Made by a program: the position numbers and the translations under genes | Notes under the pieces: model-generated | Database searches by the model: none | Told to the model about the DNA's origin: nothing | What the model saw: the letters and a program-made list of their open reading frames with translations, nothing else | Source of the DNA: Acetobacteraceae bacterium | GTDB lineage: Bacteria; Pseudomonadota; Alphaproteobacteria; Acetobacterales; Acetobacteraceae | Length of the DNA: 64,000 bases | NCBI GenBank assembly: GCA_027487675.1 | Contig: JAIYDD010000163.1 | Span: 253 to 64,252, forward strand | Reading direction: 5' to 3' | Shown here: piece after piece, positions 46,716 through 63,978 of the stretch | Position numbering within the stretch: position 1 is the stretch's first letter | Layout of the letters: each line of letters starts with the position of its first letter

Positions 46716-46761
46716 ATCCGCGCCCCCCGGCGCGCATCGTCGTCCTGGAGGTGGCGGTCGT

Positions 46762-47160: not shown

Positions 47161-47332
47161 GGTCTCAAATCCTTCCTGGGCGCGGTCAAGGGCTGCCGTT
47201 GCCGCTTTCGCCTTGGCGCCGGACTTTCGCTTGGCGCGCTCCTCCGATGGGTCATTCCGTGAAAGGTGCTTGCGCGTCCCAACCTTCTGAGAGCGGCGTG
47301 ACCGAGAAAGTTCCCGTTTCATCTTGGCTTTG

Positions 47333-48961: not shown

Positions 48962-50257
48962 TCAGCGCACCGGCGCCGGCGCGGCCCCGACCGGCACGCC
49001 CACCCGCCCCTCATGCAGCCGCGCCACCGTGCCCGCGACCGCCAGCGCCCGCCCGGCGGCGCCGTAGAACACGCCATGCACCTGCGTCGTCGCCTGCAGC
49101 GCCGCCATGAAGGCGTCCCGCAGCCGCGGCTCGGGCGGCCTTCCCTCCGACCAGAAGGCATCGAGCGAGCCCTGGTGGGTCAGGCCGGGCACGTCCCACA
49201 CCGCCCGTCCGAGCGCCTTCACCGGCCTGCCCAGCGCCAGCGCGCGCATGCCCACCGTGCTGTTCACCGTCAGCAGCCCGCGCGCGCCGGACAGCATCGC
49301 GTCCAGCGGGCCGTGATGCGCGACCAGCACCCTCTCCCGCACCCCGGCCGCCGCGGCGATCGCGGGAATGCGCCGCCCCCAGCGCTTCAGGCAGGGGTCC
49401 AGCGGATGCACCTTGCAGACCAGCCGCGCATCGGCCGGCGCATGGCGGGCGAAGGACCGCACCGTCTCGGCCACCGGCGTGTCCATGTCGCGATAGGGCG
49501 AATAGGCGCGGACGGAGAAGTCGCTTTCCATCTGCATGGCGAAGACCCAGTGCGGATGCGGCGCTGCCAGCGCCAGCACCCGCGCGCCTTCCGCCCGTTC
49601 CGCGCCCCGCCGCAGCAGCCGCCAGCCGATCCCGGCATAGGTCGCCAGCGGGTGGTGCAGGTGGTGGCTGCGGTAGTGCCGGAACGGCCAGGGCAGCATG
49701 GAGGCCAGGTGGTAGGACACGTCCCAGAAGGCCTGCAGGGGAAAACTGTCCGCCAGCCGCGGCTCCAGCTGCGCCGGCGGCAGGCCCCCGGCCAGCGCAT
49801 GGATCGCCGCCGCCTCACGCGGGAACAGGCTGCCGCCGCCCATGGCGGTGCTCTCCAGCGTGATCCAGTCGGGCCGGAAATAGCCGAAATCGGTGACGGT
49901 CACCGCCGCGCCGCGGGCTTCCGCCGCCGCGATCGCCGCGCTGTGGTAGTCCCGCCGCTCGCCCAGCAGCACCAGGTCGGTGATGGCGTGGCGGTCGAGG
50001 TAGGCGCGGATGAAGCCGGGCCAGGCGGCTTCCGGCCCCTGGTACCAGGCCGGCGCCGGCGCGCCGGGGATGCGGCGCCAGAACAGCACGTCGCCCAGGT
50101 TCAGGTGGATGCGGTGCACCTCATGCCCCAGCGCCGCCAGGCTGGCCGCGACCTCGGCGAAGAAAGGGCTGATCGGGCCCTGGAGGAAGAGGACGCGGCG
50201 CCGCCCTGGCGATCCGGCCGGGGGCGCCGGCAGGTCCGAGGTGTCGCGCGCTGTCAT
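48962..50257 (-). CDS. kpsS: capsule polysaccharide biosynthesis protein, KpsS/LipB/RkpJ-type (beta-Kdo transferase family)
   Basis: Trimmed from ORF 48962..50998 to the ATG at 50257 (431 aa). The upstream part of that ORF is the alternate frame of the formyltransferase gene. The N-terminus 'VLFLQGPISPFF..L...L...G..V.RI.LN.GD' and the later 'CKVHPLD' and 'TVNSTVG..AL..G.PV' blocks are as I remember the Capsule_synth family. Confidence 0.7.
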   Translation of the reverse strand: MTARDTSDLPAPPAGSPGRRRVLFLQGPISPFFAEVAASLAALGHEVHRIHLNLGDVLFWRRIPGAPAPAWYQGPEAAWPGFIRAYLDRHAITDLVLLGERRDYHSAAIAAAEARGAAVTVTDFGYFRPDWITLESTAMGGGSLFPREAAAIHALAGGLPPAQLEPRLADSFPLQAFWDVSYHLASMLPWPFRHYRSHHLHHPLATYAGIGWRLLRRGAERAEGARVLALAAPHPHWVFAMQMESDFSVRAYSPYRDMDTPVAETVRSFARHAPADARLVCKVHPLDPCLKRWGRRIPAIAAAAGVRERVLVAHHGPLDAMLSGARGLLTVNSTVGMRALALGRPVKALGRAVWDVPGLTHQGSLDAFWSEGRPPEPRLRDAFMAALQATTQVHGVFYGAAGRALAVAGTVARLHEGRVGVPVGAAPAPVR

Positions 50258-50291: not shown

Positions 50292-51089
50292 TCAACGCCC
50301 CGGCGGCATCGCGGTCGCGTGAAGTCCGGGGTTGCGCAGCAGCCGGAGGTCGCCGGCGCGCACCAGCCGCACCCCGCGCGCGGCGGCGTCCCGGATCGCG
50401 GCGCGGTCGGGAAACGGGCGATAGGGCAGCGGCTCGGGCGCCGGGGCGGGATCGGCGCGGCCTTCCGCCAGCGCGCGCAGCGCCTGGCGCAGCGGGTCGA
50501 GCCCCGCCAGGTGCAGCAGCCGCGCCGCTTCCAGCGCCGAGACGCCTTCGGGCAGCGCGACCGGGCGCTGCGCCAGCACCGCGCCGGCATCGATCCGCGC
50601 GACCAGGCGGTGGATGCTGACCCCCGTCTCGCCGCGCCCCTCCGCCAGCGCCCAGAAGGCGGGGATGGGCCCGCGGTGCCGCGGCAGCAGCGAGGGATGC
50701 AGGTTGATCCCCCCGAGCCGCGCCAGCGCCAGCGTCTCGGGCGCCAGGATCTGGTCGAAATGCAGCGTGACGATGAGGTCCGGCGCGGCCTGGCGCAGCG
50801 CGGCGCGGAAGGCCGGGCCGTTGACCTCCGGGACATGGACGAAGGCCGCGCCGGCCGCCGCCGCCGCGTCGCGGTGCGGCCCGCGCCGGAACGGCACGCC
50901 ATAGCCCAGCAGCAGATAGGCGAGCATCGCCGGCCCGGACCGCGCCAGCGCCGCCCGCAGCCGCGCCGGGCCCCGGCCTGCGGGGTCCGAGAGGCCAAGC
51001 AGCACGAGATCCCGGCCGAGGCCGCGCGCGAAGGCCAGCGAAGCGGCGTCGCTGATGACTGAAGCCAGGGTCAGCAGGGCTACGCGCAT
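50292..51089 (-). CDS. formyltransferase-fold protein (Fmt/ArnA N-domain-like)
   Basis: 265 aa. The catalytic region is 'DLIVTLHFDQIL....GGINLHPSLLPRHRGPIPAFWALAEGRGETGVSIHRLVARIDAGAVL'. The Asn, His and Asp of the formyltransferase triad positions are all present. Confidence 0.8.
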   Translation of the reverse strand: MRVALLTLASVISDAASLAFARGLGRDLVLLGLSDPAGRGPARLRAALARSGPAMLAYLLLGYGVPFRRGPHRDAAAAAGAAFVHVPEVNGPAFRAALRQAAPDLIVTLHFDQILAPETLALARLGGINLHPSLLPRHRGPIPAFWALAEGRGETGVSIHRLVARIDAGAVLAQRPVALPEGVSALEAARLLHLAGLDPLRQALRALAEGRADPAPAPEPLPYRPFPDRAAIRDAAARGVRLVRAGDLRLLRNPGLHATAMPPGR

Positions 51090-51114
51090 CGGCGCGGCGC
51101 GGCGCGGGTGGCCC

Positions 51115-51397
51115 GAGAGGGGCGCCGCCCCATAGGCGCTAACTTACGGTCTGCGTTGCACCCGTCGGCCCGGGTGGAGGCTTTGCCTCCCCCCGATACC
51201 CCCCGCCACCAGGGCTGCCGCCCTGGACCGGCATCAGTCAGAAGAGAACCAGATAAGTGAAGGGGGTTCCAAGGGGCCGCTGCCCCTTGGCGGGGTGCAG
51301 GGGCAGCGCCCCTGCCGGAGCGCGAGGCGGAGCCTCGCACCGCCTGCTTCCGCCCCCGAGGAGTTAAGCTAGCGCCTATGGGGCGCCGCCCCTCTCG
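51115..51397 (+). mobile_element. MITE-like repeat, full copy G (inside the PKS operon)
   Basis: The ends 'GAGAGGGGCGCCGCCCCATAGGCGCTAACTTAC' and 'GTTAAGCTAGCGCCTATGGGGCGCCGCCCCTCTCG' are inverted repeats. The interior is the reverse complement of copy C. Extra hairpin modules follow ('CCAAGGGCCgaaaGGCCCTTGG', 'CCAGGGGCCtttcGGCCCCTGG') up to ~51500. Confidence 0.75.
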
Positions 51398-51522
51398 TAC
51401 TCTCCCGGCCAAGGGCCGAAAGGCCCTTGGAACCCGGGGTCCAGGGGCCTTTCGGCCCCTGGCGGGGTGGGTATCGGGAGGGGCGGAGCCCCTCCCGGGG
51501 TCACCGGCGCCCATCCCTCCGC

Positions 51523-52830
51523 TCAGGCCTTCACCGACGCCACCGCCGCCGCCAGCTGCGCCACGGCCTCCCGCAGGTCGGCCTCCTCATGCTCCGCCGA
51601 GAAGAAGAAGCGCAGCCGCGCCGTCTTCTCCGGCACCGCGGGGAAGACGATCGGCAGCGCGTTCACCCCGCGCTCGAGCAGCGCCGCCGAGACCTGCACC
51701 GCCCGCAGCGAGCTGCCCAGCACCACGGGGACGATGCCGAGCCCCGCACTCTCCCCGGTGTCCAGCCCGCGCGCCCGGCAGAGGTCGCGGAACAGCAGCG
51801 CATTGGCCTGCAGCTTCGCCACCCGCCAGGGCTCGGCCGCCATGATGTCGAAGGCGGCGGTGGCGGCCGCGGCCAGCGGCGGTGCGAGGCCCACCGAATA
51901 GACGAAGCCCGGCACGGTGTAGCGCAGCCAGTCCACCAGCTCCGCCCGCGCCGCGACATAGCCGCCGCAGGAACACAGCGTCTTGGACAGCGTGCCCATC
52001 CAGATGTCGATCTCGGCGGGATCGACGCCGGCGGCCTCGAAGACCCCCTTGCCGGTGGCACCGACCACGCCCAGCCCATGCGCGTCGTCCACCATCAGCC
52101 AGGCATCGTGCTTCCGCGCGAGCCGCACGAAGCCCGCCAAATCGGGCACGTCGCCATCCATGGAGTAGTGGCCCTCGACCACCACCAGCGCGCGCTGGGC
52201 GGCGCGCCGGGCACGGGCCAACTCGCGCTCCGCCGCCGCCAGGTCGTTGTGCGGGAAGGGCAGGCGCCGCGCGCCGGAAAGCCTGGCGCCCTCGGTGCAG
52301 GAATTGTGGATGGCCGCGTCGTGCAGCACCAGGTCGCGCGGGCCGACCAGGTGGCCGATGACCGTGACGTTGGTGGCATGGCCGCTGGTCAGCACGAGCG
52401 CCGCCTCCGCCCCGTAATGAGCGGCGATCCGCGCCTCCAGCGCGCCATGCACCGGCCGCTCCCCGCTGACAAGGCGCGAGGCGGAACAGGACACGCCGTG
52501 GCGCGCCATGGCGTCCGCCGCCGCGGCATGGATGCGCGGGTCGCCGTTCAAGCCGAGATAGTCGTAGGAGCCGAAATTGATGACCTCCCGCCCCGCGATC
52601 ACGCTGCGCGCGCCGGCGCGGCCCTCATGGGGGCGGAAATAGGGGCTCTCGATGCCCAGCGCCTCGACGCCGTCGCGCACCAGCGCCCAGTCCTTGAGGT
52701 TCTGGATCGCGCCGAAGCCGCGCGGATCGGCGGCGGCCTGCCTTTCCTGGCCCTCGCGCCGGCGGGCGAGGCGCTGCACCAGGGCGAGACGGGCGGCGCC
52801 GGAGAGGCCGAAGCTGGGGGCGCCGGTCAT
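51523..52830 (-). CDS. PLP-dependent alpha-oxoamine synthase (AONS/SPT/KBL family; RkpG-like acyltransferase)
   Basis: Trimmed from ORF 51523..53226 to the ATG at 52830 (435 aa). Motifs are 'NFGSYDYLGL', 'SGHATN', 'DDAHGLGVVG' and the PLP lysine in 'MGTLSKTLCSCGGY'. Confidence 0.88.
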   Translation of the reverse strand: MTGAPSFGLSGAARLALVQRLARRREGQERQAAADPRGFGAIQNLKDWALVRDGVEALGIESPYFRPHEGRAGARSVIAGREVINFGSYDYLGLNGDPRIHAAAADAMARHGVSCSASRLVSGERPVHGALEARIAAHYGAEAALVLTSGHATNVTVIGHLVGPRDLVLHDAAIHNSCTEGARLSGARRLPFPHNDLAAAERELARARRAAQRALVVVEGHYSMDGDVPDLAGFVRLARKHDAWLMVDDAHGLGVVGATGKGVFEAAGVDPAEIDIWMGTLSKTLCSCGGYVAARAELVDWLRYTVPGFVYSVGLAPPLAAAATAAFDIMAAEPWRVAKLQANALLFRDLCRARGLDTGESAGLGIVPVVLGSSLRAVQVSAALLERGVNALPIVFPAVPEKTARLRFFFSAEHEEADLREAVAQLAAAVASVKA

Positions 52831-52839
52831 GGGGCGGGA

Positions 52840-53200
52840 TGCGCCGATGGCCCGGGGGAGGCGTTGCCTCCCCCGTACCCCCACCACCAGGCCCGGGCCG
52901 GGCCTGGACCGGCGTGTTCGGGACGCAGCGTGGGGCGGGCGCAGGGCGTGGGCGAGCGGGGTGGCTTGCGAGGCTCCGCCTCGCGCTCCGCCAGGGGCGC
53001 TGCCCCTGGACCCCGGCAAGGGACACAGGTCCCTTGCAACCCTTTCAATTGACTTGCCTCGCGCACCCACAGCCAGCGCAGACCGGAACGCACCGCACCA
53101 CCCCGCGCCCACCCAAACCCCCGGGTTCCAAGGGCCTTTCGGCCCTTGGCGGGGAGAGTACGAGAGGGGCGGAGCCCCTCTCGGGCCCGCAGGGAGCCCC
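52840..53200. repeat. rearranged (head-to-head) chimera of MITE-family internal modules, no intact TIRs
   Basis: 52850-52915 matches the forward centre of copy G ('GGAGGCGTTGCCTCC...CCTGGACCGGCGTG'). 52965-53050 matches the reverse half as in copy C ('GCGAGGCTCCGCCTCGCGCTCCGCCAGGGGCGCTGCCCCTG'). 53125-53195 carries the 'CCAAGGGCCtttcGGCCCTTGG' module. Confidence 0.6.
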
Positions 53201-53261
53201 CGCGCCGGCCCGTCGTCGTCACCCACAGCCCCGGCATCGGCAGGTCACTCCTCCTGCGGCG

Positions 53262-56200
53262 TCACTCCGCGGCCACCGACTTGCCCGGCGCGTCTTCCGG
53301 CGCGAAGGTCTCCATCAGCGTCGAGATGGTCGCCGCTTCGGTCGCCGGGTCCAGGGCCGCCGCGGCGATCTGCCGTGCCAGGGCCGCCACGGTCAACTCC
53401 TCGGACAGTCCCGCAATGGGGATCTGTCGCCCGAGCCGCCCTTCCAGCGAGGAGCGCAGTTCCAGCGCGCCCAGGCTGTCGAGGCCGAGCCCCGTCACCT
53501 TCGCCTCCACCCCCACCGCGTCGGGCGGCAGGCGCAGGATGCGGCCGATCTCCTCCTGCGCCAGGCGCAGCACCAGCGCCTCCGCCTCCGCGCGCGGCAG
53601 GGCGGCCAGGCGTTCGCGCAGATCCCCCGCCTCCGCCACCGGCGCCGCCGCCGCCAGCGCCGCGAAGGCGGGCTCGGCGAAGACCGGCAGCGCGATGCGG
53701 GCGTCCCCGGGGTTCAGCCGCACCAGCAGCGGCGCGGCATGCGGCGCGGCGAGCATGGCCGGCAGGGCCGACAGCGCTTCCTCCGCCGTCATCGCCGCCA
53801 CGCCGAGCCGCCGGCGCAGCGCCTCCGCCTTGCCGGCATCGGCGGCCAGCCATCCGGCATCGGCGATCGGCCCCCAGCCGACGCAGAGCGCCGGCTTCCC
53901 CGCCGCGCGCCGGCGCCGCGCCAGGGCTTCCAGCGCCGCATTCGCCGCCACGTAGTTCGCCTGGCCCGGATTGCCGAAGGCGACGGTCGCCGAGCCGAAC
54001 AGCAGGAACAGCGACAGCGGATCGCCCGCGGTCAGCCGGTCCAGGTTCTCCGCCGCGGCGAGCTTCGGCGCCAGCGCCCGCCGGAAGCGCGCCGCGTCCA
54101 TCGACAGCGCCGCCCCGTCCTCCAGCACGCCGGCCGCATGCACCACGCCGCCGATCGGCCGCGCCGCGCGGATTTTTGCAAGGGTCGCCGCCAACGCATC
54201 GGCATCCGAAGCATCGCAGGCGTGCAGCGCCGCCTGGGCGCCGAGCGCCGCAAGGTCCCGCAGCGCCTCCGCATGTCCGGTCGGGCCGGCGCGGCGCGCC
54301 ACCAGCGCCAGGTGCCGGGCGCCCTGCCGGGCGAGCCATTTGGCGCAGGCCAGCCCGAAGCCCCGCGTGCCGCCCACGACGACGATGGTGGCCTCCGCCG
54401 GCGGCGCCCAGGGCGCGGCGGCGGCCGGGCGGGGTGCCGGCGGGCGGATCACCAGCTTGCCGATATGGGCGGAGGCCTGCAGCGTCCGGAACGCCGCCTC
54501 CACCTCGCCCGCGCCGAAGACGGCGAAGGGCAGCGGGCGGAAGGTCTCCTCCCGCAGCGCTTCGCGGATGCGCGCCAGCAGGCGGGCGGCATGCGCCGGG
54601 CGGGCGCGCGGCAGTTCGTCGACGTCCACCGCGAACCAGGTCGCGTTGCGGCGCAGCGCGCGGAAGGGCGTGCGGCGGTTCTCCACGAAGTCGCGCTTGC
54701 CGAGCTCCACGAACCGCCCGAAGGGCCGCAGCAGGCCGAGGCTGCGCTCCATCGCCTCCCCGGCCAGGCTGTTCAGCACCACGTCCACGACGCCTTCGCC
54801 CGCGCCCCGCCCACCCCATTCCGCGCGCAGCGCATCGGCGAAGCCGGGGTCGCGGCTGTCCAGCACCAGCTCGGCACCGGCCGCGCGCAGGAAGGCGCGC
54901 TTGGCGGGCGTGCCGGCGGTCATCGCCACCCGCGCGCCGATCGCCTGCGCCACCTGCAGCGCGGCCAGCCCGACGGCACCGGCGCCGCCATGCACCAGCA
55001 GCGTCTCGCCCGGCTGCAGCCGGGCGCACTCCTCCAGCGCGTGCAGGGCGGTCAGGAAAGCCACCGGCATGGTCGCCGCCGCCTCCGGCGCCATTCCCTC
55101 CGGCAGCGGCGCCAGCGCCTCCGCCCGCGTCACCGCGCGCGCGGCGAGCGCGGCCGGCGCCACGCCGAACACCCGCTGCCCCGGCCGCAGCGCGACGCCG
55201 GGCCCGGCTTCCTCCACCACGCCCGCGCATTCCATGCCGAGCGTCGGCCCGGCGAAGCCGACGGCCAGCAATTCCTCCGGCAGCAGCCCCTGCGCCCACA
55301 TCAGGTCGCGGAAGTTCAGCCCCGCGGCCTCGACCCGGATCGCGACCTCCCCCGGCCCCGGCCGGCGCGGCGCGGGGGGCCGCCAGCCCAGCGTGCCGAG
55401 CCGGCCCGGCTGCCCGACCTCCAGCGCCAGCGCGCCCCCCGGCGGCGGCAGCGCCAGCCCCGGCACCAGCCGCGGCACCAGCCGGGCGGTGGCGGCCAGC
55501 GCGACTTCCGGCTCCGCCTCCGCCGCCTCCAGCTCGCCGGCCAGGCGCCGCGCCGCGGCATCGGGGCGCAGCTCGGGCGCCAGGTCGATGCGCCGCGGCC
55601 GCAGCGCCGGCATCTCGTTGGCCAGCACCCGCGCCAGGCCCAGCAGCGCGGCGGCTTCCGGCGCGTGGCGGCCCTCCGCCGGCTGCGCGCCGCCCGCCGT
55701 CACCAGCACGAAGCCGGCCGCGCTGCCGGCCGCCGCCTCGGCCAGCCGCACCAGCCCGGCCAGCGTCTCCGGCAGCGACGCCGCGTCGGGCGCCAGCAGC
55801 GCCAGCACCCGCGCGCCGGCCAGCGCCCGGGGTGCCGGCGCCGCGCCGAACTCCAGCCGCTCCACCGCCGCCCCGCGGGAGCCGAGCAGCCCCGCCAGCG
55901 CATCGGCCAGCGCCCGGCCGCCGGCATCGGCGACCAGCACGCTGCGCGGCGGCGCCGGGCGCGCGGCGGGGGGCGGCGGCGGCGCCTCGGCCGCGACCAG
56001 CGCGGCGGGCCAGGGGGCGCAGGGCAGCGCCTCGGCGCTCGCGGCCCGGAATCCCGCCGCCTCCAGGCTGCCGAGCCAGAGCGCGGCGTCCGGCAGCGAC
56101 CCGCCCTGCGATCCCGGCGCCGGCGGCGGGCCGAGCCCGCTCCACCATTCGGGGTCCTGCCCGCAGGCGAAGGTCCAGGCGCGGCCCGGCAGCGGCTCGG

Positions 56201-59200
56201 CCAGCAGCAGCGCGCCGCCCTCGGCCAGCGCCGGGCGCAGCGCCGCCGCCAGCCGCGCGCCGGCCCGCCCGCGCGCCGCCGGCGCCAGCCCCACCACCAG
56301 GTCGGCGACGATCGGCGGCGGCGTGCCGGCGTCCGGGTCCCAGACCGCGCTGTCCAGCGCCATCCCCGGCGGGGCCGGCGGCAGCGGCACCCGCGCCTCC
56401 CCGGAAGCGACGTAGCGCACCTGCCGCCCGAGCGGCGCCAGCCGCGCCACGACCCGCCGCGCCAGCGCATCGCCGGCCGCCGAGACTTCCAGGATCCGCA
56501 GCGGCCGCGTCTCCGGCCAGGCGGCGGCCAGCGCGGCGACGGCCGCGGCCAGCGCATCGGCCAGCCGCCCGAAGGCGGCGCCCTGGGCGGGCGGCGGGGC
56601 GGCGCCGTGGCGCCCGCCCTGCAACGCCGACGGCAGCGCCTCCATCGCCTCGGCCAGCCAGGCGAGGTCGAGCGCCAGTTCCGGCCGCTCCGCCAGGATG
56701 GCGCGCCAGATCTCGGCGGCCGGCGGCAGCGCCTGGTCCGGCAGCAGGCGGAAGCCGGACGGCGTCGCCTCCGCCGCCCCGTCCTCGACCAGGGCGCGGC
56801 GCAGGAAGGCCTGGTAGGCGGCGGCCTCCGGCGCGGCGGCGGCCAGCGGCATCGATTGCGCGGCGGCGGCCACCATCGCCTCGACCAGCAGCGCCACCTC
56901 CGACAGGTCGCGCGACGCCGCCTCCCGCGCCGCGGCATCCACCGCCACGCCCAGGGCCGGCGGCGGCGGCGCGCCTTCCGCGGCGGGCACCCAGTCGATG
57001 CGGCTGGCGATCTCGGCCGCCGGCGCGGCGCCGGGCAGGGCGATGCGCCAGAACTCCGCGCCCTCGGCCACCGCCACCGCGCGCCCGGCGCCGTCGCGCA
57101 GCACCAGCCGCGCCTCCGCCGAGCGCGTGCCGAGCCGCGTCACCTCGAGCTCCGCCGCCACCGCCGGCGCGGCGCCGGGCAGCGCGACCAGCCGGGCGAC
57201 GCGCACCGGCACCACCCCGGTGCCGTCGGGGATGTCCGGCGCCAGCAGGCCCAGCAGCCCCTGGAAGGCCCCGTCCAGCCGGGACGGATGCAGCAGGAAG
57301 CCGGCATCCGGCGGCGCCGCCTGCGGCAGGGCGAGCTCCACCCGCGCACGCCCGGCCGCGCGGTCCGCCGCCACCGACGCCACCGCCGCGAAGGCCGGGC
57401 CGTAGGCCAGGCCGAGCCGGGCGGCGACGGCGCGCACCGCCTCCCCCGCCACGGGCTCCGCCGCCGCGACCGGCAGGGGCGGCACGGCGAGCGCGTTGGC
57501 CGAGCCCGGCCGCGCCTCGGCCAGGGCATGCAGGGTCCAGCCCTCCTCCGCCAGGCGCCGGCGGCTTTCCAGCCGGAAGGCGCCCTCGGGCGAGAGGCTG
57601 CAGCGGACCTCGCGCGCCCGGGACGTCTCCAGCGGCAGGGCGCGCAGGATGCGGAATTCCGCGAGTTCCAGCGCCGCGGCATCCGGGTGGCAGGCGCGCG
57701 CCGCGGCCAGCGCCATGTCGAGCATCGCCGCCGCCGGCAGGACCGCATCGGGCCCCAGCCGGTGGTCGGCCAGCCAGGGCGCGGCTTCCGTGTCGAGCGC
57801 GCGGGTCCACACCCCGGGCTCGGCCCCGGCGCGGCGGAAGCCCAGCAGCGGATGGTCCTCGACGGGGTCCACGATGCGCAGGCTTTCGGGGGTGGCGGCG
57901 TGCCAGGCGCGGATGCGGTGGAACGGGGTCGGCGGCAGGCGGCGTTCCGCGGGGCCGGCGAAGGCCGGGCCCTCGCGCGGGTCGGCGCCGGCGGCGAAGG
58001 CGCGGTCGGCGGTGGCGGCGAAGGGGTCCTCGCCGGCCGGGTCGCGGCGCGACAGGCTGGGCAGGCAGGCGGCCGGCAGCCGCGCGGCGCGGCAGGTCTC
58101 CCGCAGGTAGGATTGCAGGACGGGGTTGGGCCCGATCTCCAGGAACAGCCGCGCGCCCTGCGCCAGCGCCGCGCGCATGGCGGCCTCGAAGCGCACCGGC
58201 TGGCGCAGGTTGCGCCACCAATAGGCGGGGCCCGCCTCGCCCGCCGCCAGCGCCGCGCCGGTGACGGTGGAGAGCATCGGCAGGGCCGGCGCCGCCGGCC
58301 GCAGCCCGGCCAGCTCCGCCAGCAGCCCGTCGCGCGCGGGGTCCATCGCCGCGCTGTGGAAGGCGTAGTCCAGGTCGAGCCCGATCCAGCCGATGCGCCG
58401 CGCCTCCGCCCGTTCCCGCACCACGGCAAGGTCGGCCTCCGGGCCCGCCAGGGTGACGGAGCCGGGCGCGTTCAGCGCCGCGACCTCCACCGCCGTGCCG
58501 GCAACCAGCGCGGCGGCTTCCTCGGCCCCCGCGGCGAGCGCGGCCATCCGCCCCTGTCCGCGCAGCAGGTGCTGGTGGCGGCTGCGCGCCACGATCAGCC
58601 GCGCGGCATCGCCCAGCCCGAGCACCCCGGCCGCCAGCGCGGCCGCGACCTCGCCGACCGAATGGCCGAGCACCATCGCCGGCCGCAGCCCCTGCCCGGC
58701 CAGCGCGTCCAGGCTCGCCGCCTGGATCGCGAAGAGCAGCGGCTGCGCGCGGTCGGTGGCGGCCAGTTCCTCCGCCGTGACGCCGGCCTCGATCCGCGCC
58801 ATCGGCGACCAGCCGAGCAGCGGCGCCAGCGCCCCGTCCACCCGCGCCAGCGCCGCACGGAACGGCGCGGAGGCGGCCAGCGCCGCCTGCGCCATGCCCG
58901 CATGCTGCGCGCCGTTGCCGGCGAAGACGAAGCAGGCCGGCGCGGCGCCGGTATCGGCGGCCAGCCCCGCGGCGACGCCGGGCGCCGCGCCGTCGCGCGC
59001 CCAGCCATCGAGCGCCGCGGCCAGCGCCGCCCCGTCCGCCCCGCGCAGCGCGAGGCGATGCGGCAGCAGGTCGCGGTGCCGCGCCGCGCCGCGCGCGAGT
59101 GCGGCCGCCTGGCGCGGGGCCGCGCCGGCCAGCCGGTCGCGCCAGGCGCCGGCCAGGGCCTTCAGCCCCTCCGCAGAGCGCGCCGAGAGCAGCAGCGGCG

Positions 59201-60869
59201 GCGCCCCGCCCGCCTTCGGCGCGCGCCGCCGCGGCGTGGCGGGGGCGGGGCCGAGCAGCACGCAGGCATTGGTGCCGCCGAAGCCGAAGGAATTGACGCC
59301 CGCCACCGCATCCGCCGGCGCGTCCAGCGGCTCCGCCAGCGCGGGGACGCGGATGTTCAGCGCTGCGTAGTCGATGTGCGGGTTGGGTGCCGACTGGTGC
59401 AGCGTCGGCGGCACCACCCGCTTCGCCAGCACCAGCATGGCCTTGACCAAGCCGGCGATGCCGGAGGCGGGCTCCAGGTGGCCGATGTTCGACTTGATCG
59501 AGCCGATCGGCAGCGGCGAAGCGCGTCCCGCCGCCGCGGCGCTGCCGATCGCCCAGGCCTCCATCGGGTCGCCGACGGAGGTGCCGGTGCCATGCGCCTC
59601 GAAATAGCCGATGCGGTCGGGGCCGATGCCGGCTTCCGCCATCACCCGGCGGATCAGCGCGGCCTGGGCGTCGCGGTTGGGCAGCGACAGGCCGATGGTC
59701 CGCCCGGCGCTGTTCACCCCGCTGCCCAGGATGACGGCGCGGATGGCATCGCCGTCCCTGAGCGCCGCATCCAGCGGCTTCAGCAGCAGCGCGCCCGCGC
59801 CTTCCGCCCGGACATAGCCGTCCGCCGCCGCATCGAAGGCCCGGCACCGCCCGGTGGGGGAGAGCATGCCGGCGCGGGAGAAGCCGCCGAAGGCGAAGGG
59901 CGAGAGCAGCAGCTGCACGCCGGCCGCCACCGCGACCTCGACCCGCCCTTCCGCCAGTTCCCGGCAGGCGCGGTGCAGCGCGACGAGCGAGGAGGAGCAG
60001 GCGGTGTCGATCGTCTCCGCCGCGCCGCGCAGGTCGAAGACATTGGCGATGCGGTTGGACAGGATCGACAGCGCGTTGCCGGTCATGAAATACCGGTCGG
60101 CGCCGGCATAGTCCTGCAGCCGGAGTTCCGCGTAGTCGGTGGACGACCCGCCGACGAAGACCGCCGCCTCCCGCCCCGCCAGGGCGGAGGCGCGCCAGCC
60201 GGCATCGTCTATCGCGTGCTGGGTGACTTCCAGCAGCAGGCGCTGCTGCGGGTCCATCTCGGCGGCTTCGCGCGGGGAGATGCCGAAGAAGGCGGCGTCG
60301 AAGCCGGAAACGTCGCCGAGATGGCCGGCGGCATGGGTGTAGCCGCGCCCCGGCTCGCCGCGGCGGGGATGCAGGAAGGCGGCCTGGGGGAAGCGGTCCT
60401 GCGGCAGGGTGGAGACGGCGTCGCGGCCGCTGGCCAGCAATTCCCAGGCGGCATCGAGGCCATCGGCCCCGGGCAGCCGGCAGGCCGCGCCGACGATGGC
60501 GATGGGCACCGCCCTGCGGCGCGCGGCATCCACGCCCCCGCGGGACGCGGCATCCACGCCCCCGCGGGACGCGGCATCCACGCTTCTGCGGGGCGCGGCA
60601 TCCACGCCCCCGCGGGACGCGGCATCCACGCTTCTCCGGGGCGCGGCATCCACGCTTCTGCGGGGCGCGGCATCCACGCCCCCGCGGGACGCGGCATCGA
60701 CGGCCCTGCGGGGCGCGGCATCCACTCCCCCGCGGGGCGCGTCATCCACGGCCCTGCGGGACGCGTCATCCACGGCCCTGCGGGACGCGTCATCCACGGC
60801 CCTGCGGGACGCGTCATCCACGGCCCTGCGGGCCGGGGCAGCCCGTGGAGGACGAGCGCTGCGGGACAT
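53262..60869 (-). CDS. type I polyketide/fatty-acid synthase, single fully reducing module KS-AT-DH-psiMT-ER-KR-ACP, no thioesterase (RkpA-like)
   Basis: Trimmed from the 2800-aa ORF 53262..61664 to ATG 60869 (2535 aa), because the upstream part overlaps the GT4 gene in another frame. Every domain has recognisable motifs (see the domain features). The start may instead be GTG ~60509, just before 'PIAIVGAACRLPG'. Confidence 0.93.
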   Translation of the reverse strand: MSRSARPPRAAPARRAVDDASRRAVDDASRRAVDDASRRAVDDAPRGGVDAAPRRAVDAASRGGVDAAPRRSVDAAPRRSVDAASRGGVDAAPRRSVDAASRGGVDAASRGGVDAARRRAVPIAIVGAACRLPGADGLDAAWELLASGRDAVSTLPQDRFPQAAFLHPRRGEPGRGYTHAAGHLGDVSGFDAAFFGISPREAAEMDPQQRLLLEVTQHAIDDAGWRASALAGREAAVFVGGSSTDYAELRLQDYAGADRYFMTGNALSILSNRIANVFDLRGAAETIDTACSSSLVALHRACRELAEGRVEVAVAAGVQLLLSPFAFGGFSRAGMLSPTGRCRAFDAAADGYVRAEGAGALLLKPLDAALRDGDAIRAVILGSGVNSAGRTIGLSLPNRDAQAALIRRVMAEAGIGPDRIGYFEAHGTGTSVGDPMEAWAIGSAAAAGRASPLPIGSIKSNIGHLEPASGIAGLVKAMLVLAKRVVPPTLHQSAPNPHIDYAALNIRVPALAEPLDAPADAVAGVNSFGFGGTNACVLLGPAPATPRRRAPKAGGAPPLLLSARSAEGLKALAGAWRDRLAGAAPRQAAALARGAARHRDLLPHRLALRGADGAALAAALDGWARDGAAPGVAAGLAADTGAAPACFVFAGNGAQHAGMAQAALAASAPFRAALARVDGALAPLLGWSPMARIEAGVTAEELAATDRAQPLLFAIQAASLDALAGQGLRPAMVLGHSVGEVAAALAAGVLGLGDAARLIVARSRHQHLLRGQGRMAALAAGAEEAAALVAGTAVEVAALNAPGSVTLAGPEADLAVVRERAEARRIGWIGLDLDYAFHSAAMDPARDGLLAELAGLRPAAPALPMLSTVTGAALAAGEAGPAYWWRNLRQPVRFEAAMRAALAQGARLFLEIGPNPVLQSYLRETCRAARLPAACLPSLSRRDPAGEDPFAATADRAFAAGADPREGPAFAGPAERRLPPTPFHRIRAWHAATPESLRIVDPVEDHPLLGFRRAGAEPGVWTRALDTEAAPWLADHRLGPDAVLPAAAMLDMALAAARACHPDAAALELAEFRILRALPLETSRAREVRCSLSPEGAFRLESRRRLAEEGWTLHALAEARPGSANALAVPPLPVAAAEPVAGEAVRAVAARLGLAYGPAFAAVASVAADRAAGRARVELALPQAAPPDAGFLLHPSRLDGAFQGLLGLLAPDIPDGTGVVPVRVARLVALPGAAPAVAAELEVTRLGTRSAEARLVLRDGAGRAVAVAEGAEFWRIALPGAAPAAEIASRIDWVPAAEGAPPPPALGVAVDAAAREAASRDLSEVALLVEAMVAAAAQSMPLAAAAPEAAAYQAFLRRALVEDGAAEATPSGFRLLPDQALPPAAEIWRAILAERPELALDLAWLAEAMEALPSALQGGRHGAAPPPAQGAAFGRLADALAAAVAALAAAWPETRPLRILEVSAAGDALARRVVARLAPLGRQVRYVASGEARVPLPPAPPGMALDSAVWDPDAGTPPPIVADLVVGLAPAARGRAGARLAAALRPALAEGGALLLAEPLPGRAWTFACGQDPEWWSGLGPPPAPGSQGGSLPDAALWLGSLEAAGFRAASAEALPCAPWPAALVAAEAPPPPPAARPAPPRSVLVADAGGRALADALAGLLGSRGAAVERLEFGAAPAPRALAGARVLALLAPDAASLPETLAGLVRLAEAAAGSAAGFVLVTAGGAQPAEGRHAPEAAALLGLARVLANEMPALRPRRIDLAPELRPDAAARRLAGELEAAEAEPEVALAATARLVPRLVPGLALPPPGGALALEVGQPGRLGTLGWRPPAPRRPGPGEVAIRVEAAGLNFRDLMWAQGLLPEELLAVGFAGPTLGMECAGVVEEAGPGVALRPGQRVFGVAPAALAARAVTRAEALAPLPEGMAPEAAATMPVAFLTALHALEECARLQPGETLLVHGGAGAVGLAALQVAQAIGARVAMTAGTPAKRAFLRAAGAELVLDSRDPGFADALRAEWGGRGAGEGVVDVVLNSLAGEAMERSLGLLRPFGRFVELGKRDFVENRRTPFRALRRNATWFAVDVDELPRARPAHAARLLARIREALREETFRPLPFAVFGAGEVEAAFRTLQASAHIGKLVIRPPAPRPAAAAPWAPPAEATIVVVGGTRGFGLACAKWLARQGARHLALVARRAGPTGHAEALRDLAALGAQAALHACDASDADALAATLAKIRAARPIGGVVHAAGVLEDGAALSMDAARFRRALAPKLAAAENLDRLTAGDPLSLFLLFGSATVAFGNPGQANYVAANAALEALARRRRAAGKPALCVGWGPIADAGWLAADAGKAEALRRRLGVAAMTAEEALSALPAMLAAPHAAPLLVRLNPGDARIALPVFAEPAFAALAAAAPVAEAGDLRERLAALPRAEAEALVLRLAQEEIGRILRLPPDAVGVEAKVTGLGLDSLGALELRSSLEGRLGRQIPIAGLSEELTVAALARQIAAAALDPATEAATISTLMETFAPEDAPGKSVAAE
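53370..53627 (-). other. PKS acyl carrier protein domain (aa ~2415-2500)
   Basis: The phosphopantetheine site is 'GLGLDSLGALEL' (S2465). Only ~35 aa follow before the stop, so there is no TE, R or C domain. Confidence 0.88.
53850..54398 (-). other. PKS ketoreductase domain (aa ~2158-2340)
   Basis: 'IVVVGGTRGFGL', 'VVHAAGV' and the catalytic Tyr in 'GQANYVAANA'. Confidence 0.85.
54444..55442 (-). other. PKS enoylreductase domain (aa ~1810-2142)
   Basis: MDR fold with the NADPH loop 'LLVHGGAGAVGLAALQVA', 'GMECAG' and 'GKLVI'. Confidence 0.85.
55995..56852 (-). other. degenerate methyltransferase-like (psiMT) region (aa ~1340-1625)
   Basis: It occupies the position of C-MT/psiME in FAS-like megasynthases. 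The SAM motif I is decayed to 'ILEVSAAGD', compared with the consensus (V/I)LE(V/I)GxGxG. Confidence 0.5.
57030..57887 (-). other. PKS dehydratase domain (aa ~995-1280)
   Basis: 'HPLLG' (H1006), 'LPAAAMLDMAL' and 'HPSRLDGAFQ' (DxxxQ). Confidence 0.8.
58065..58937 (-). other. PKS acyltransferase domain (aa ~645-935), malonyl-type
   Basis: 'FVFAGNGAQ', the active Ser in 'GHSVGE' (S737) and the specificity motif 'YAFHS'. Phe at the third position is the malonyl signature, in contrast to YASH. Confidence 0.85.
59250..60512 (-). other. PKS ketosynthase domain (aa ~120-540)
   Basis: 'PIAIVGAACRLPG', active-site Cys in 'DTACSSS' (C291), 'EAHGTGT' (H426), 'SNIGHLEPASG' (H464) and 'NSFGFGGTNA'. Confidence 0.9.
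60519..60830 (-). repeat. 13 x 24-bp tandem repeat at the 5' end of the PKS reading frame
   Basis: On the plus strand the units are 'GCGGCATCCACGCCCCCGCGGGAC' and 'GCGTCATCCACGGCCCTGCGGGAC' variants, head to tail. In the PKS frame they encode R(R/G)(A/G/S)VD(D/A)A(S/P/R) x13 (aa 14-117). Confidence 0.9.
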
Positions 60870-60937: not shown

Positions 60938-62212
60938 TCAGGCCCCGCCATCTTCGCGCCGCTGCACGCCGATGGCGGGCACCCGCGGGCGGCTGGCGAT
61001 GGCCGGCAGCGGCCGCGGGCCGGCGGGCCGCCCGACCAGGCTGTCGAGCATGCCTTCCACCTGGCGGAAATGCTCGTCCCAGCTCGGGGCGCGCCATTGG
61101 CCGAGCCGCGCGAGCTGCGCGCGGCGCGCCAGGCTGTCCGGGCGGGCATAGTCCAGCACCGCGCTGCGCCAGGCCGCGCCGTCCAGCGGGTCCAGGTAGT
61201 CGGGGACGCCGCGCCCCACCTCCCGCAGTGCCGGCAGGTCGGAGACGATGGCCGGCACGCCAAGCGCCAGCGCCTCGCCCAGCGGCAGGCCGAAGCCTTC
61301 CGCGAAGCTGGGCAGCAGCAGGGCGCGGGCGCCGCGCAGCAGCGACGCGACCTCGCGGTCCGGCAGGGCGCCGGCTTCCCGCACCAGGCCGTCCAGCGCC
61401 GCGCAGCGCTCCAGCATGTCGAGGACGTTCTCGTTCTCCCAGCCGCGGCGGCCGACCACCACCAGGCGTGGCGCGGCCGCGCCATGGGTGCCGGCCAGGT
61501 GCCGCCAGAGGTTCAGCAGCAGCAGGTGGTTCTTGCGCGGCTCGATGGTGCCGAGGGCGACGAAATAGGGCCGGATCGCGACCGGCGGCTCCTCCACCTG
61601 CGGAAGCTCGACGCCGAGGGGGGCCACCACCAGCGGCGGCTCCGTCGCGCGCGCCGCCAGCCACGGGCCGAGTTCCTTGCCGGTGGCGGCGGAGTTGACG
61701 ACGATCGCATCCGCCAGCGCCGCGGTGGTGGCGATGCGGCGCCGGTGCTTCTCCGCCTGGCCGGCGCGGGCGAATTCCGGGTGCTGCATCGGGATCAGGT
61801 CGTGGATCAGCGGCACGAAGTGGCAGCCCTGCCGGCGCAGCGCGGCGATCAGGGCGGGGCGTTCCAGCGCGCGGTGGGACACCAGCAGGAAGATCTTGTG
61901 GCCCGGCCGGCGCAGCGCCTCCGCCAGGGCGCTGCGGCCGAAGGGCAGCGCCAGGCGGGCGCGCCGCACCACGGCGGCGGCCGAGGCGGTGCCGCTGGCC
62001 CAGCTGGCTTCGATCGCCTGCACGAGGTCGCGCACCAGCGCGATCGGCAGCGCCGCGAAGCCGACCAGCGGCAGTTCGGCGACGAAGGTGGTGCGGTCCG
62101 CGGATTGGAAGGCCCAGTGGCGGGCATAGGCGAGTTCGACGCGATCAATGCCGGTCGGGGCGGGCCGACGGGCCACGGTGAGCAGGCGCGAAATATCGAG
62201 GATGACCTGCAC
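60938..62212 (-). CDS. glycosyltransferase family 4 (GT-B, group 1)
   Basis: ORF 60938..62314. The likely start is GTG 62212 (SD 'GAGGG'), just before 'VILDISRLL...GIDRVELAY'. ATG 62266 or 62314 are also possible. The EX7E region is 'PSFAEGFGLPLGEALALGVP'. Confidence 0.85.
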   Translation of the reverse strand: MQVILDISRLLTVARRPAPTGIDRVELAYARHWAFQSADRTTFVAELPLVGFAALPIALVRDLVQAIEASWASGTASAAAVVRRARLALPFGRSALAEALRRPGHKIFLLVSHRALERPALIAALRRQGCHFVPLIHDLIPMQHPEFARAGQAEKHRRRIATTAALADAIVVNSAATGKELGPWLAARATEPPLVVAPLGVELPQVEEPPVAIRPYFVALGTIEPRKNHLLLLNLWRHLAGTHGAAAPRLVVVGRRGWENENVLDMLERCAALDGLVREAGALPDREVASLLRGARALLLPSFAEGFGLPLGEALALGVPAIVSDLPALREVGRGVPDYLDPLDGAAWRSAVLDYARPDSLARRAQLARLGQWRAPSWDEHFRQVEGMLDSLVGRPAGPRPLPAIASRPRVPAIGVQRREDGGA

Positions 62213-62345
62213 GCTGACCCTCGACCCCCGCTTCTGCTGCGAACACAATCTCAACAACGCAACCATGGGTTTAAGGTTTCCCCTGCCCATCCGCGCTGCG
62301 CGATTGCTTCGCATCCTGTAGAACAGAACGCGCGATACGCTGCGT

Positions 62346-62534: not shown

Positions 62535-63554
62535 TCAGTCGCCGTCCGGGCGGATCACGTTGCTCGGGATGCCGAGTAGCAAATTGTCCCGCATCGTCTC
62601 GGCGCTCTTCCGCCGGATATCGGCCCAGGCCTCCGGCGTGTGGAAGGCGCTGTGCGGCGTCACCACCAGGCGGCCGGCCAGCCAGGGCTCGCGCCGCCGA
62701 TAGGCCTGCAGCAGCGCCGGCGCCGGCTCCGGCGGCGGCTCCACCGGGATCACGTCGAGCCCGGCGCCCGCCACATGCCCCGACCGGAGCGCCGCTTCCA
62801 GCGCATCGAGGTCGAGGCTGGTGCCGCGTGCCGTGTTCACCACCACCGCGCCGGCCGGCAGCTGCGCCAGCTGCGCCGCCCCCACCAGCCCGCGCGTCAG
62901 CCGCGTGTCCGGCACGTGGATCGACAGCACGTCCGCATGCCGCATCAGCTCGTCGAGCGTCCGGCACCGCCCGATGCCGAGCGCCCGATCCGCGCCGTTC
63001 GGCAGGAAGGGGTCGAAGAAGGCGACCTTGAAGCCGAAGGCCTTGGCGCGCAGCGCGACCGCCGTGCCGATCCGGCCGAGGCCCAATATGCCGAAGCCCT
63101 GCACCTCCGCCCGGCGGATCAGCGGGTGGTCGAGGTAGCGCCAGGGTGCCGGCGGGTCGGCGCGCTGCAGGTCATGGTGCAGCACGATGCCCCGCCGCAG
63201 CGACAGCGCCAGCGCCATCGCGTGGTCCGCCACCTCCATCGTGCCGTAGTCGGGGACGTTGCAGACGGTGATGCCGCGCGCCGCGCAGGCCGCCCGGTCC
63301 AGCCGGTCGTAGCCCACGCCGGTGCGCACCACGACCTTGAGCCGGGGGAACCGCGCGACATGGTGGGCGCGCAGCCAGTGGCGGAAGACCAGCAGCCCGT
63401 CGACGCGCGCGCAGACCTCGTCGGACAGCGCATCGAGGCTCCCGGTGTGCGGCGCGCCGCCGCGCAGCAGCTCAACCTCCGGCCCCAGGATCTCCTGCTC
63501 GAGCGCCGCGTCGGGGTACATCGCCTCGGGCTCGAGGACCGTCAGTCGCGCCAA
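62535..63554 (-). CDS. C-terminal-binding-protein-like D-2-hydroxyacid dehydrogenase
   Basis: 339 aa with a TTG start. Motifs are 'GYDRLD', 'VCNVPDYGTMEVADHAMAL', 'GILGLGRIG', 'VVNTARG', 'AGLDVIPVEP' and 'VTPHSAF'. Confidence 0.85.
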   Translation of the reverse strand: MARLTVLEPEAMYPDAALEQEILGPEVELLRGGAPHTGSLDALSDEVCARVDGLLVFRHWLRAHHVARFPRLKVVVRTGVGYDRLDRAACAARGITVCNVPDYGTMEVADHAMALALSLRRGIVLHHDLQRADPPAPWRYLDHPLIRRAEVQGFGILGLGRIGTAVALRAKAFGFKVAFFDPFLPNGADRALGIGRCRTLDELMRHADVLSIHVPDTRLTRGLVGAAQLAQLPAGAVVVNTARGTSLDLDALEAALRSGHVAGAGLDVIPVEPPPEPAPALLQAYRRREPWLAGRLVVTPHSAFHTPEAWADIRRKSAETMRDNLLLGIPSNVIRPDGD

Positions 63555-63654: not shown

Positions 63655-63978
63655 GGCGGGGCGCCGCCCCATCGGCGCTAACTTATCGGCGAAGGGTGCG
63701 CGAGGTGGCCCGGGTGGAGGCGTTGCCTCCCCCCCGTCGAACGCCTTCGGCGTTTGACCCCCCCCCACAACCAGAGCTGCCGCCCTGGACCGGCGTCAGT
63801 AGAAAGAACAAGCAAATCAGGGGGGTTCCAACGGGCCGCTGCCCCTTGGCGGGGGTCGGACGCATGCGTCCGACGGGCAGAGCCCCGGCCGGAGCGCGAG
63901 GCGGAGCCTCGCACCTTCCGCCGTCGCCGTTCCCATGGTCGCCAAGCCAAAGTTGGCGCCCATGGGGCGCCGCCCCTT
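63655..63978 (+). mobile_element. MITE-like repeat, full copy I
   Basis: The ends 'GGGGCGCCGCCCCATCGGCGCTAACTTA' and 'CCAAAGTTGGCGCCCATGGGGCGCCGCCCC' are inverted repeats. The interior is collinear with copy A. Confidence 0.72.

Follow-up and report, generated by a model that had tools for sequence, protein, structure and literature searches.

Chain release in an RkpA/RkpG-type polyketide synthase locus of an Acetobacteraceae bacterium: a probable role for the neighboring alpha-oxoamine synthase

How does a polyketide synthase (PKS) that lacks a thioesterase (TE) release its product? The question is raised by a locus in a 64,000-nucleotide stretch of contig JAIYDD010000163.1 (positions 253 to 64,252; assembly GCA_027487675.1) from an Acetobacteraceae bacterium; this whole stretch is referred to below as the window. 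A single-module type I PKS is encoded there on the minus strand at 53262-60869, followed by the gene for an alpha-oxoamine synthase (AOS; 51523-52830, minus strand). The original prediction, which was made from the letters alone, was that the AOS frees the chain from the acyl carrier protein (ACP) of the PKS. Sequence comparisons support this idea well, and release of the ACP-bound chain by joining it to an amino acid is the most likely function of the AOS. By architecture, sequence and synteny, the pair can be assigned to the RkpA/RkpG (= WcbR/WcbT) capsule-lipid module, of which it is the Acetobacteraceae (Falsiroseomonas/Roseomonas-group) version. The mechanistic idea was reasonable and is now better supported, and the novelty and the end product that were claimed with it are not.

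Probable chain release by the alpha-oxoamine synthase

Pfam divides the PKS, which is 2535 aa long when read from the ATG at 60869 (an alternative start is GTG 60509), into a ketosynthase (KS; residues 122-492, E 3e-83; nucleotides 59394-60506), an acyltransferase (AT; 647-963, 3e-63; 57981-58931), a dehydratase (DH; 1006-1275; 57045-57854), an enoylreductase (ER; 1838-2141; 54447-55358), a ketoreductase (KR; 2160-2336, 3e-51; 53862-54392) and the ACP (2439-2500; 53370-53555), all on the minus strand. The domain order KS-AT-DH-ER-KR-ACP and every motif quoted in the original prediction were confirmed by Pfam and a motif check. The KS has DTACSSS (C291), DPQQR, HGTGT (H426) and GHLE (H464); the AT has GHSVGE (S737), R762 and the malonyl-type YAFHS at 835; the DH has HPLLG (H1006) and DGAFQ (D1199); the ER has HGGAGAVG at 1960; the KR has GGTRGFG at 2166 and YVAAN (Y2306); and the ACP has GLDSLG, with S2465 as the phosphopantetheine Ser. 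A loss of essential KS or AT residues had been raised as a danger to the idea; the catalytic motifs are all intact. The single-module anatomy and the YAFHS motif also support the malonyl-type, fully reducing synthase that had been proposed.

As predicted, Pfam finds no TE, reductase or condensation domain in the full protein, which ends 35 aa past the Pfam ACP domain and about 70 aa past the phosphopantetheine Ser. The absence of a TE is unremarkable in itself; it is normal for the iterative PKSs that resemble mycocerosic acid synthase (MAS), the closest solved structures (MAS, E 2e-237; fatty acid synthase (FAS), 7e-176).

The AOS enzymes serine palmitoyltransferase (SPT), BioF and Fum8 catalyze a decarboxylative condensation that gives a 2-amino-3-keto compound with loss of CO2. 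A reaction of this type as the off-loading step in the window is supported by natural fusions of PKS or ACP domains to the AOS, by the conserved adjacency of PKS and AOS, and by the lack of another release candidate in the window.

The fusions came from an HMMER search of 1.8 billion cluster representatives, of which the 150 best-scoring AOS relatives, 44-62% identical to the window protein, were examined. Proteins longer than 650 aa make up 128 of the 150, and at least 107 have KS, AT, DH, ER, KR or ACP domains N-terminal to the AOS; the fused relatives with PKS/ACP domains are 44-57% identical to the window AOS. For example, Pfam reads one of them (P0197) as KS-AT-DH-ER-KR-ACP-AOS, i.e., the two window proteins fused, and another (P0130) as FAAL-ACAD-ACP-AOS. 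X-ACP-AOS fusions of this kind place the AOS directly after the carrier protein, where a release domain sits.

The adjacency was measured in a scan with an AOS alignment, one genome per species. The scan gave 80 loci; these come from alpha-, beta-, gamma- and deltaproteobacteria, Planctomycetes and other groups, and they were annotated by tblastn with reference proteins. Of the 70 loci with 2.5 kb or more of upstream sequence, 53 have an RkpA-like PKS directly upstream, on the strand of the AOS, and X-ACP-AOS fusions are often seen in the loci without one. Several Planctomycetes, cyanobacterial and myxobacterial loci (L036, L044, L053, L056, L060, L063, L075 and others) have AOS relatives (46-54%) without an adjoining RkpA-like PKS, and in these the AOS is fused with an upstream polypeptide of about 500-950 aa that bears an ACP. 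Such ACP-fused forms would be a different loading system with the same release chemistry.

The window is about 75% G+C, which produces many long spurious open reading frames (ORFs), and the real frames were chosen by codon-position GC. Pfam analysis of essentially all of the ORFs supported by third-position GC in the 64 kb found no TE, reductase, condensation or acyltransferase release candidate. A discrete TE or acyltransferase elsewhere, which the original prediction had named as a threat to its mechanism, was thus not found in the window. The other genes there are housekeeping ones, including those for a Mrp antiporter, a peptide ABC transporter, MoxR/BatA, a sigma-54 two-component system and PurA.

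The AOS itself (435 aa, ATG at 52830) matches Pfam Aminotran_1_2 (E 3e-48). The residues expected of a pyridoxal phosphate (PLP)-dependent AOS are present, as claimed originally for the TLSK and DDAHG-type motifs: the PLP lysine K283 (TLSK), D248 and H251 (DDAH), together with H151 (SGHATN). K283, D248 and H251 are invariant across a 13-sequence alignment. The position of H151, the PLP-stacking His, is a Tyr in Sinorhizobium meliloti RkpG (SGYLTN; L001 13788-15203), and the stacking His is therefore not an invariant residue of the family. Relative to the PKS-fused forms, the window AOS has an extra N-terminal segment of about 55 aa, as judged from where the alignments start. An identical 435-aa protein is present in a public protein collection, and Falsiroseomonas proteins are 85% identical, which places the source genome in the Roseomonas group of the Acetobacteraceae; a contig search for the exact AOS returned only one 1.5-kb Logan contig, which added no gene context.

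Assigning a substrate to the AOS is more difficult. Its closest solved relatives in the PDB are bacterial SPTs (Sphingobacterium and Sphingomonas; 2e-65), then BioF/Kbl and also 5-aminolevulinate synthase. Among the NCBIfam models, bioF (TIGR00858) scores best at 347.4 bits, under its cut-off of 426.45; Kbl gives 300 bits (cut-off 460), the three SPT models give 296.5, 275.7 and 202.8 bits (cut-offs 640, 500 and 670), and the protein is also under the cut-off for CqsA-type synthases. With the data at hand, no reliable sequence feature that discriminates the amino acid substrate was found. We infer that Ser or Ala is more likely than Gly, and the label 'sphingoid-like' for the product is pure inference.

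Membership in the RkpA/RkpG family

A tblastn search with the AOS against plasmid-collection records matched a 3.7-Mb S. meliloti replicon. The region around the match has a polysaccharide export gene, a 2502-aa PKS, an AOS, a short-chain dehydrogenase/reductase (SDR), an unannotated sulfatase-family stretch, a 'capsule biosynthesis protein' and kpsF, and it matches the published rkp-1 order rkpU, rkpA (fused rkpABCDEF), rkpG, rkpH, rkpI, rkpJ (PMC7902896). By BLASTP the window PKS is 38% identical to S. meliloti RkpA over 1336 aa and 40% over 847 aa, and its tblastn segments against loci L001 and L002 are 44-47% identical in KS-AT and ER-KR and 29% in the DH-linker part. The AOS is 51% identical to S. 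meliloti RkpG and 52% to a WcbT-like protein of Caballeronia. By these identities the PKS and AOS are shown to be related to S. meliloti RkpA and RkpG at the level of orthologues. WcbR/RkpA, which form a recognized clade of capsule-locus PKSs, have intact DPQQR and HGTGT among their traits (PMC3908369); the window PKS has the whole set of traits, being a single module without a TE and with both motifs intact.

The original prediction had implied that the system was unrecognized. This part has to be given up: the RkpA/RkpG (WcbR/WcbT) pair has been tied to capsule production since the 1990s, so that the window pair is not a new kind of system, but a member of a family that is known and biochemically unsolved. 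The rkp-1 region is genetically required for production of the K-antigen/poly-Kdo capsule (Kdo, ketodeoxyoctulosonic acid) (PMC7902896, PMC4881576), and its products are described as making and modifying 'a specific lipid carrier' (PMC4881576). Genetic evidence for a capsule role of the pair comes only from rhizobia (PMC7902896, PMC4881576) and Burkholderia pseudomallei. On a Caballeronia plasmid, genes for an SDR, a protein of the lipoteichoic acid (LTA)-synthase family, the PKS, an LpxC-like protein and the AOS lie inside a kpsDMTE capsule locus, an order that matches wcbP-Q-R-S-T as described (PMC11766843). The wcbPQRT operon was described in 2025 as one for 'capsular polysaccharide lipid biosynthesis' with a function that is 'little known' (PMC11766843), and our literature search found no biochemical study of RkpG/WcbT or of a PKS-derived capsule anchor.

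The scan of 80 loci displays several patterns. At least one kps gene is present within 10 kb in 33 of the 57 PKS+AOS loci, and in alpha-, beta- and gammaproteobacteria the pair is found together with KpsS-like or kps export genes. An SDR gene is present in 20 of the 80 loci and an LTA-synthase-like gene in 14, and therefore these are frequent, but not universal, partners of the pair. Closer to the window, the order of a family 4 glycosyltransferase (GT4), the PKS, the AOS, a formyltransferase-like protein and a KpsS-like protein is conserved in R. indoligenes, two Roseococcus, Pseudoroseomonas and Paracraurococcus. The R. indoligenes block lies beside KpsC-like, KpsM, KpsT, KpsE and KpsD genes; in the two Roseococcus loci (L006 and L014) it is not beside kps export genes, and this is also the case in the window.

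Falsiroseomonas bella, in which the PKS is 72% identical to that of the window, keeps the block except for the slot between AOS and KpsS, where there is an unrelated 361-aa protein (L004 11362-12447) without a Pfam or NCBIfam match. The occupant of this slot varies by lineage: a formyltransferase-like gene in the window, the 361-aa protein in F. bella, an SDR plus a sulfatase-family protein in rhizobia, and an LpxC-like gene in Burkholderiaceae. Such a variable slot would suggest lineage-specific tailoring of a common amino-lipid core. This protein, of about 350-360 aa, is also found just downstream of the AOS in L042, L061, L062 and L069 and nearby in L075, and in Methylocella and other alphaproteobacterial loci its gene comes straight after that of an AOS without an RkpA-like PKS upstream. 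The protein is a conserved partner of the AOS, possibly with an N-acyltransferase role.

The five-gene block and repeats in the window

Pfam and codon-position GC delimit one co-directional minus-strand block in the window, consisting of the GT4, PKS, AOS, formyltransferase-like and KpsS-like genes. The GT4 gene (60938-62314, minus strand; Pfam Glyco_trans_1_4 and Glycos_transf_1) is the first of this putative operon; its start is uncertain and is either ATG 62314 or, by alignment to F. bella, about 62224. The protein is 74% identical to the product of the F. bella gene at the same position. A GT4 gene is kept upstream of the PKS in L004, L005, L006 and L014 and adjoins the AOS in L010, L012, L025, L032 and L033. 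A sigma-70-like site is present at 62378-62349, 5' of the gene. The spacers that separate the PKS, AOS, formyltransferase-like and KpsS-like genes gave no terminator-like site, and two weak terminator-like matches are both within the GT4 ORF.

The 555-aa linker between DH and ER of the PKS (55380-57044, minus strand) was originally labeled methyltransferase (MT)-like. The label has weak support: no methyltransferase match was obtained by sequence in Pfam or PDB, even at E<=1, but a low-confidence structural model best matches PKS C-methyltransferase (C-MT) domains. A homologue search gave five proteins and a shallow six-sequence alignment, from which an AlphaFold model with a mean pLDDT of 52 was obtained. 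Its best Foldseek matches are the PKS C-MTs CurJ, AprA and citrinin CMeT, at E of about 5e-4 and a TM of only 0.25-0.37, as well as PKS KR structural subdomains. It is plausible on this model, and in line with a degenerate SAM motif (ILEVSAAGDAL), that the linker is an inactive pseudo-MT plus pseudo-KR, as in animal FAS.

The formyltransferase-like protein (50292-51089, minus strand; 265 aa; Pfam Formyl_trans_N) keeps the active-site motif (NLHPSLLPRHRG; N-x-H-x-SLLP-x-x-RG). It scores under the NCBIfam cut-offs for formyltransferase, fmt and ArnA, and its best solved relatives are the formyltransferase domain of ArnA (7e-22) and sugar N-formyltransferases. A related gene (48-53% identity) is present between AOS and KpsS in L005-L008 and L014. 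We propose that it may N-formylate a lipid amine or an amino sugar. The lipid is a candidate target because the ArnA and sugar N-formyltransferase relatives formylate primary amines, and the AOS product would have one. The last gene of the block (48962-50257, minus strand) encodes a 431-aa RkpJ/KpsS-like protein (Pfam Capsule_synth, 1e-64) that shares 44% identity with S. meliloti RkpJ across 426 aa and 69% with its F. bella counterpart; a sequence search found no solved relative. It is homologous to the beta-Kdo transferase by which lipid anchors of capsules are primed; its donor and acceptor are putative. Passages in two papers describe KpsS-family enzymes as adding Kdo to a lipid acceptor and so priming capsule synthesis (PMC11766843; PMC11041684).

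The block is flanked by a 2-hydroxyacid dehydrogenase gene upstream and by M17 aminopeptidase and MarR regulator genes downstream. Two genes of the D-isomer 2-hydroxyacid dehydrogenase family are present in the window, one beside the GT4 gene (62535-63554) and one at about 45262-46431. The first has an F. bella counterpart in the same position (81% identity) and was considered as a missing ketoreductase, but this was rejected since no genome other than F. bella keeps the gene and L005, L006 and L014 lack it there. Because its position is not kept in the other Roseomonas-group loci, this gene is probably not part of the module.

The AOS is indeed the gene that follows the PKS, as originally stated, but the two genes do not abut. 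The spacer from the PKS stop to the AOS start (52831-53261, minus strand) is 431 nt long, as compared to 23 nt in F. bella and a 4-nt overlap in S. meliloti, and it holds a repeat at about 52967-53178. The spacer between the AOS and the formyltransferase-like gene (51090-51522, minus strand) is filled by the same repeat family (about 51114-51482). This dispersed intergenic family (similar to repetitive extragenic palindromes or miniature inverted-repeat transposable elements) has, in addition to these two copies inside the operon, copies at four other intergenic sites in the window: 5818-6250, 11436-11800, 46470-46560 and 63657-63932. The copies are about 200-400 nt long, occur in both orientations, have arms of up to about 200 nt at 85-97% identity, and share the recurring motifs CCAGGGCTGCCGCCCTGGACCGGCATCAG and CCAAGGGGCAGCGGCCCCTTGG.

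The start of the PKS gene also holds a repeat. Tandem Repeats Finder detects 13.7 copies (87% matches) of a 24-bp, i.e., eight-codon, tandem repeat at 60512-60840 on the minus strand, in frame between ATG 60869 and the KS. It would encode RRAVDDAS/GGVDAAS octapeptides within the first 120 or so residues after that ATG. The repeat is absent from all of the relatives examined; measured against the IAIVGAACR motif, the PKSs of F. bella, R. indoligenes, Roseococcus and other relatives begin only 5-25 aa ahead of the motif at the KS, and Met1 of S. meliloti RkpA aligns to residue 121 of the window PKS. Since the relatives lack the repeat, the true start may be GTG 60509. The array is thus either a repetitive N-terminal tail of about 110 aa or a 5' leader array with translation from GTG 60509, and in both cases, it may be a variable-number repeat.

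Two other repeats lie outside the block. A 25-bp tandem repeat, CGCCCATCCCCGCGCCCCTCCGGGG, is present in about 5-7 copies at 46561-46735, just 3' of the MarR-family gene (46762-47463, minus strand), and overlaps a 393-aa ORF (45556-46737) without a Pfam or NCBIfam match. A 91-nt element occurs twice (8497-8587 and 41983-42073; 74% identical) in or near intergenic regions and has internal dyad symmetry (TTTTCAGTCG...GGGGAGGGGGCC...GGCCCCCTCCCC...CGACCAAAC).

A proposed pathway and its relation to known systems

The original prediction left the neighboring genes out of account and regarded a free sphingoid-like base as the end product. This is not what the neighborhood suggests. Because the KpsS-like, formyltransferase-like and GT4 genes are kept alongside the pair in the Roseomonas group, the amino-keto lipid is probably an intermediate that is N-modified and glycosylated, and not the end product. 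We suggest, with a probability of roughly 0.6, that the PKS and AOS make an amino-lipid that is capped and glycosylated into a primer or anchor for a Kdo-containing capsule-type polysaccharide. In this pathway, the PKS would iterate on malonyl-CoA and keep the resulting saturated long acyl chain on its ACP. The AOS, holding an amino acid as a PLP aldimine, would attack the acyl-S-ACP thioester by decarboxylative Claisen condensation, which would free the ACP and yield a 2-amino-3-keto long-chain compound. The free amine would then be capped, here probably by N-formylation and in other lineages through the different gene in the slot, and the GT4, the KpsS-like Kdo transferase or both would glycosylate a lipid hydroxyl. 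The resulting glycolipid would serve as primer or anchor in the role that lyso-phosphatidylglycerol has for Escherichia coli KpsS.

Several observations weigh against this pathway. The KpsS-like protein scores far under the NCBIfam KpsS cut-off (NF050054; 164 versus 600 bits), and the formyltransferase-like enzyme could act on an amino sugar and not on the lipid. By Pfam, no kpsMTED export genes and no KpsC gene are present in the 64-kb window, and by Pfam and NCBIfam, neither an SDR (RkpH/WcbP) nor a sulfatase/LTA-synthase-family protein (RkpI/WcbQ) is encoded in its block. Given these absences, the downstream chemistry may differ from that in rhizobia and Burkholderia, with no evident enzyme to reduce the 3-keto group. 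Co-expression of PKS and AOS could be disturbed in this genome by the repeat-filled spacer that separates them. Finally, the title of a 2005 paper by Fraysse et al. reportedly calls the poly-Kdo anchor of S. meliloti 1021 a 'phospholipid anchor', which is not obviously an amino-lipid.

One alternative has as the end product of the pair a free amino-lipid of the membrane or a sphingoid-like base, or else a metabolite or signal that diffuses, with the KpsS-like, GT4 and formyltransferase genes as mere neighbors. That the closest solved relatives of the AOS are bacterial SPTs would fit with this, as would the position of the block away from kps export genes in the window and in the two Roseococcus loci, and the roughly 40% of PKS+AOS loci without a kps gene within 10 kb. 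However, the AOS is under all three NCBIfam SPT cut-offs, five Acetobacteraceae genera share the five-gene order, at 45-74% identity, KpsS-like or kps export genes travel with the pair in three proteobacterial classes, and rhizobial genetics ties the locus to K-antigen production (PMC7902896, PMC4881576), so that we consider a free lipid unlikely. It is even harder to believe that the AOS is a housekeeping enzyme, be it BioF (biotin), Kbl (threonine catabolism) or a canonical SPT, that is beside the PKS by chance. Although bioF is its best NCBIfam model (347 bits) and public annotations of the relatives read '8-amino-7-oxononanoate synthase', it falls under the cut-offs for bioF, Kbl and every SPT model, RkpG/WcbT proteins and PKS-fused AOS domains are closest to it, and no bio, tdh or sphingolipid (cerS/cerR-type) neighbors are present in the window. 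We regard this explanation as very improbable.

The other alternative concerns the release step. The chain might be freed by a discrete TE or acyltransferase elsewhere, or be transferred directly to a sugar or glycerol, with the AOS working separately on acyl-CoA. BioF, Kbl, many SPTs and similar stand-alone AOS enzymes do use CoA thioesters, and dedicated acyltransferases (PapA5 in the case of MAS) act in trans to off-load the MAS-like PKSs, which are the closest solved relatives; furthermore, the 64 kb in view is only part of the genome. Against this, the window has no TE or acyltransferase candidate, the AOS clade is overwhelmingly fused to or adjoining ACP-bearing synthases, and the PKS and AOS are adjacent in 53 of 70 loci, with translational overlap in S. 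meliloti. Release of this kind therefore seems quite unlikely.

A broader form of the amino-lipid pathway can be put forward tentatively; we consider it possible, but doubtful. RkpA/RkpG modules in general might build an undescribed class of anchor, consisting of an AOS-released 2-amino-3-keto lipid with a lineage-specific amine cap (N-formyl here, another acyl group where the slot holds a different gene) and, elsewhere, RkpI/WcbQ phosphoglycerol decoration, to which the KpsS-like enzyme, in place of lyso-phosphatidylglycerol, would add the first Kdo. If this is true, then the rhizobial K-antigen, B. pseudomallei CPS-I and Roseomonas-group anchors would all be nitrogen-containing polyketide lipids.

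The RkpA/RkpG (WcbR/WcbT) proteins have been tied for about 30 years to the capsule in rhizobial symbiosis and to the virulence capsule of B. pseudomallei. With PKS and AOS so widely adjacent, PKS-ACP-AOS fusions so numerous and a lineage-specific gene lying between AOS and KpsS, the loose notion of a 'lipid carrier' becomes a proposal that is precise and testable, i.e., that the AOS releases the ACP-bound chain as an amino-lipid that is decorated by KpsS-type and GT4 enzymes. If so, some ABC-transporter capsules would be anchored by a dedicated polyketide amino-lipid and not by a housekeeping phospholipid, which would be relevant to capsule-targeted inhibitors and to glycoconjugate design.

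It is useful to compare the window with systems that are better known. Bacterial SPTs share the AOS fold family, and their type of reaction on a long acyl thioester would match the one proposed here, but the window AOS scores far under the NCBIfam SPT cut-offs and has no ceramide-synthase or reductase neighbors. The MAS-like PKSs and animal FAS have the same KS-AT-DH-(pseudo domains)-ER-KR-ACP order as the window PKS, in which the pseudo domains are plausible. MAS likewise has no TE, and it is off-loaded in trans, whereas animal FAS has a TE. MAS differs in using methylmalonyl-CoA and in being unloaded by an acyltransferase onto an alcohol; in the window, the AT is of the malonyl type, and the PKS is paired with a C-C bond-forming PLP enzyme. 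The PKS-AOS fusions follow the same chemical logic as that proposed here, in which decarboxylative Claisen condensation with an amino acid frees a reduced chain from the ACP, and PKS/AOS pairs for fungal sphingolipid-like toxins (fumonisin Fum1/Fum8 and sphingofungin) have the same release logic. Unlike in the fused forms, the window AOS is a separate polypeptide, and its context is a capsule or glycolipid and not a toxin or alkaloid.

Among the capsule systems, the KpsS-KpsC pathway of E. coli and Neisseria shares with the window a Capsule_synth (KpsS-family) protein. It builds a poly-Kdo linker on lyso-phosphatidylglycerol; in E. coli this acceptor is a common phospholipid of the membrane, and neither a PKS nor an AOS takes part. 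The window has no KpsC, but a dedicated lipid-building pair is genetically coupled to its KpsS-like gene. The B. pseudomallei-type wcbP-T genes (CPS-I), which are also found in Caballeronia and Cobetia, are more similar. They lie in an ABC-transporter capsule locus and encode a WcbR-like PKS (about 46-47% in KS-AT and ER-KR) and a WcbT-like AOS (52%). They differ from the window in having an LpxC-like deacetylase gene between PKS and AOS, with SDR and LTA-synthase-family genes upstream, and in having neither a formyltransferase-like gene nor an adjoining GT4 gene. The S. meliloti rkp-1 region differs in having the SDR (RkpH) and the sulfatase/LTA-synthase-family RkpI between the AOS and the KpsS-like protein, and in its rkpU and kpsF flanks; the window, for its part, has a formyltransferase-like gene in the RkpH/RkpI slot, a GT4 gene upstream, no export genes nearby and the possible N-terminal repeat of about 110 aa. 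The two nevertheless have the same PKS domain order without a TE, an AOS directly downstream and a KpsS-like gene a few kb farther on, all on one strand. The window therefore adds one more member to this family, in a compact five-gene form that is possibly suited to heterologous reconstitution.

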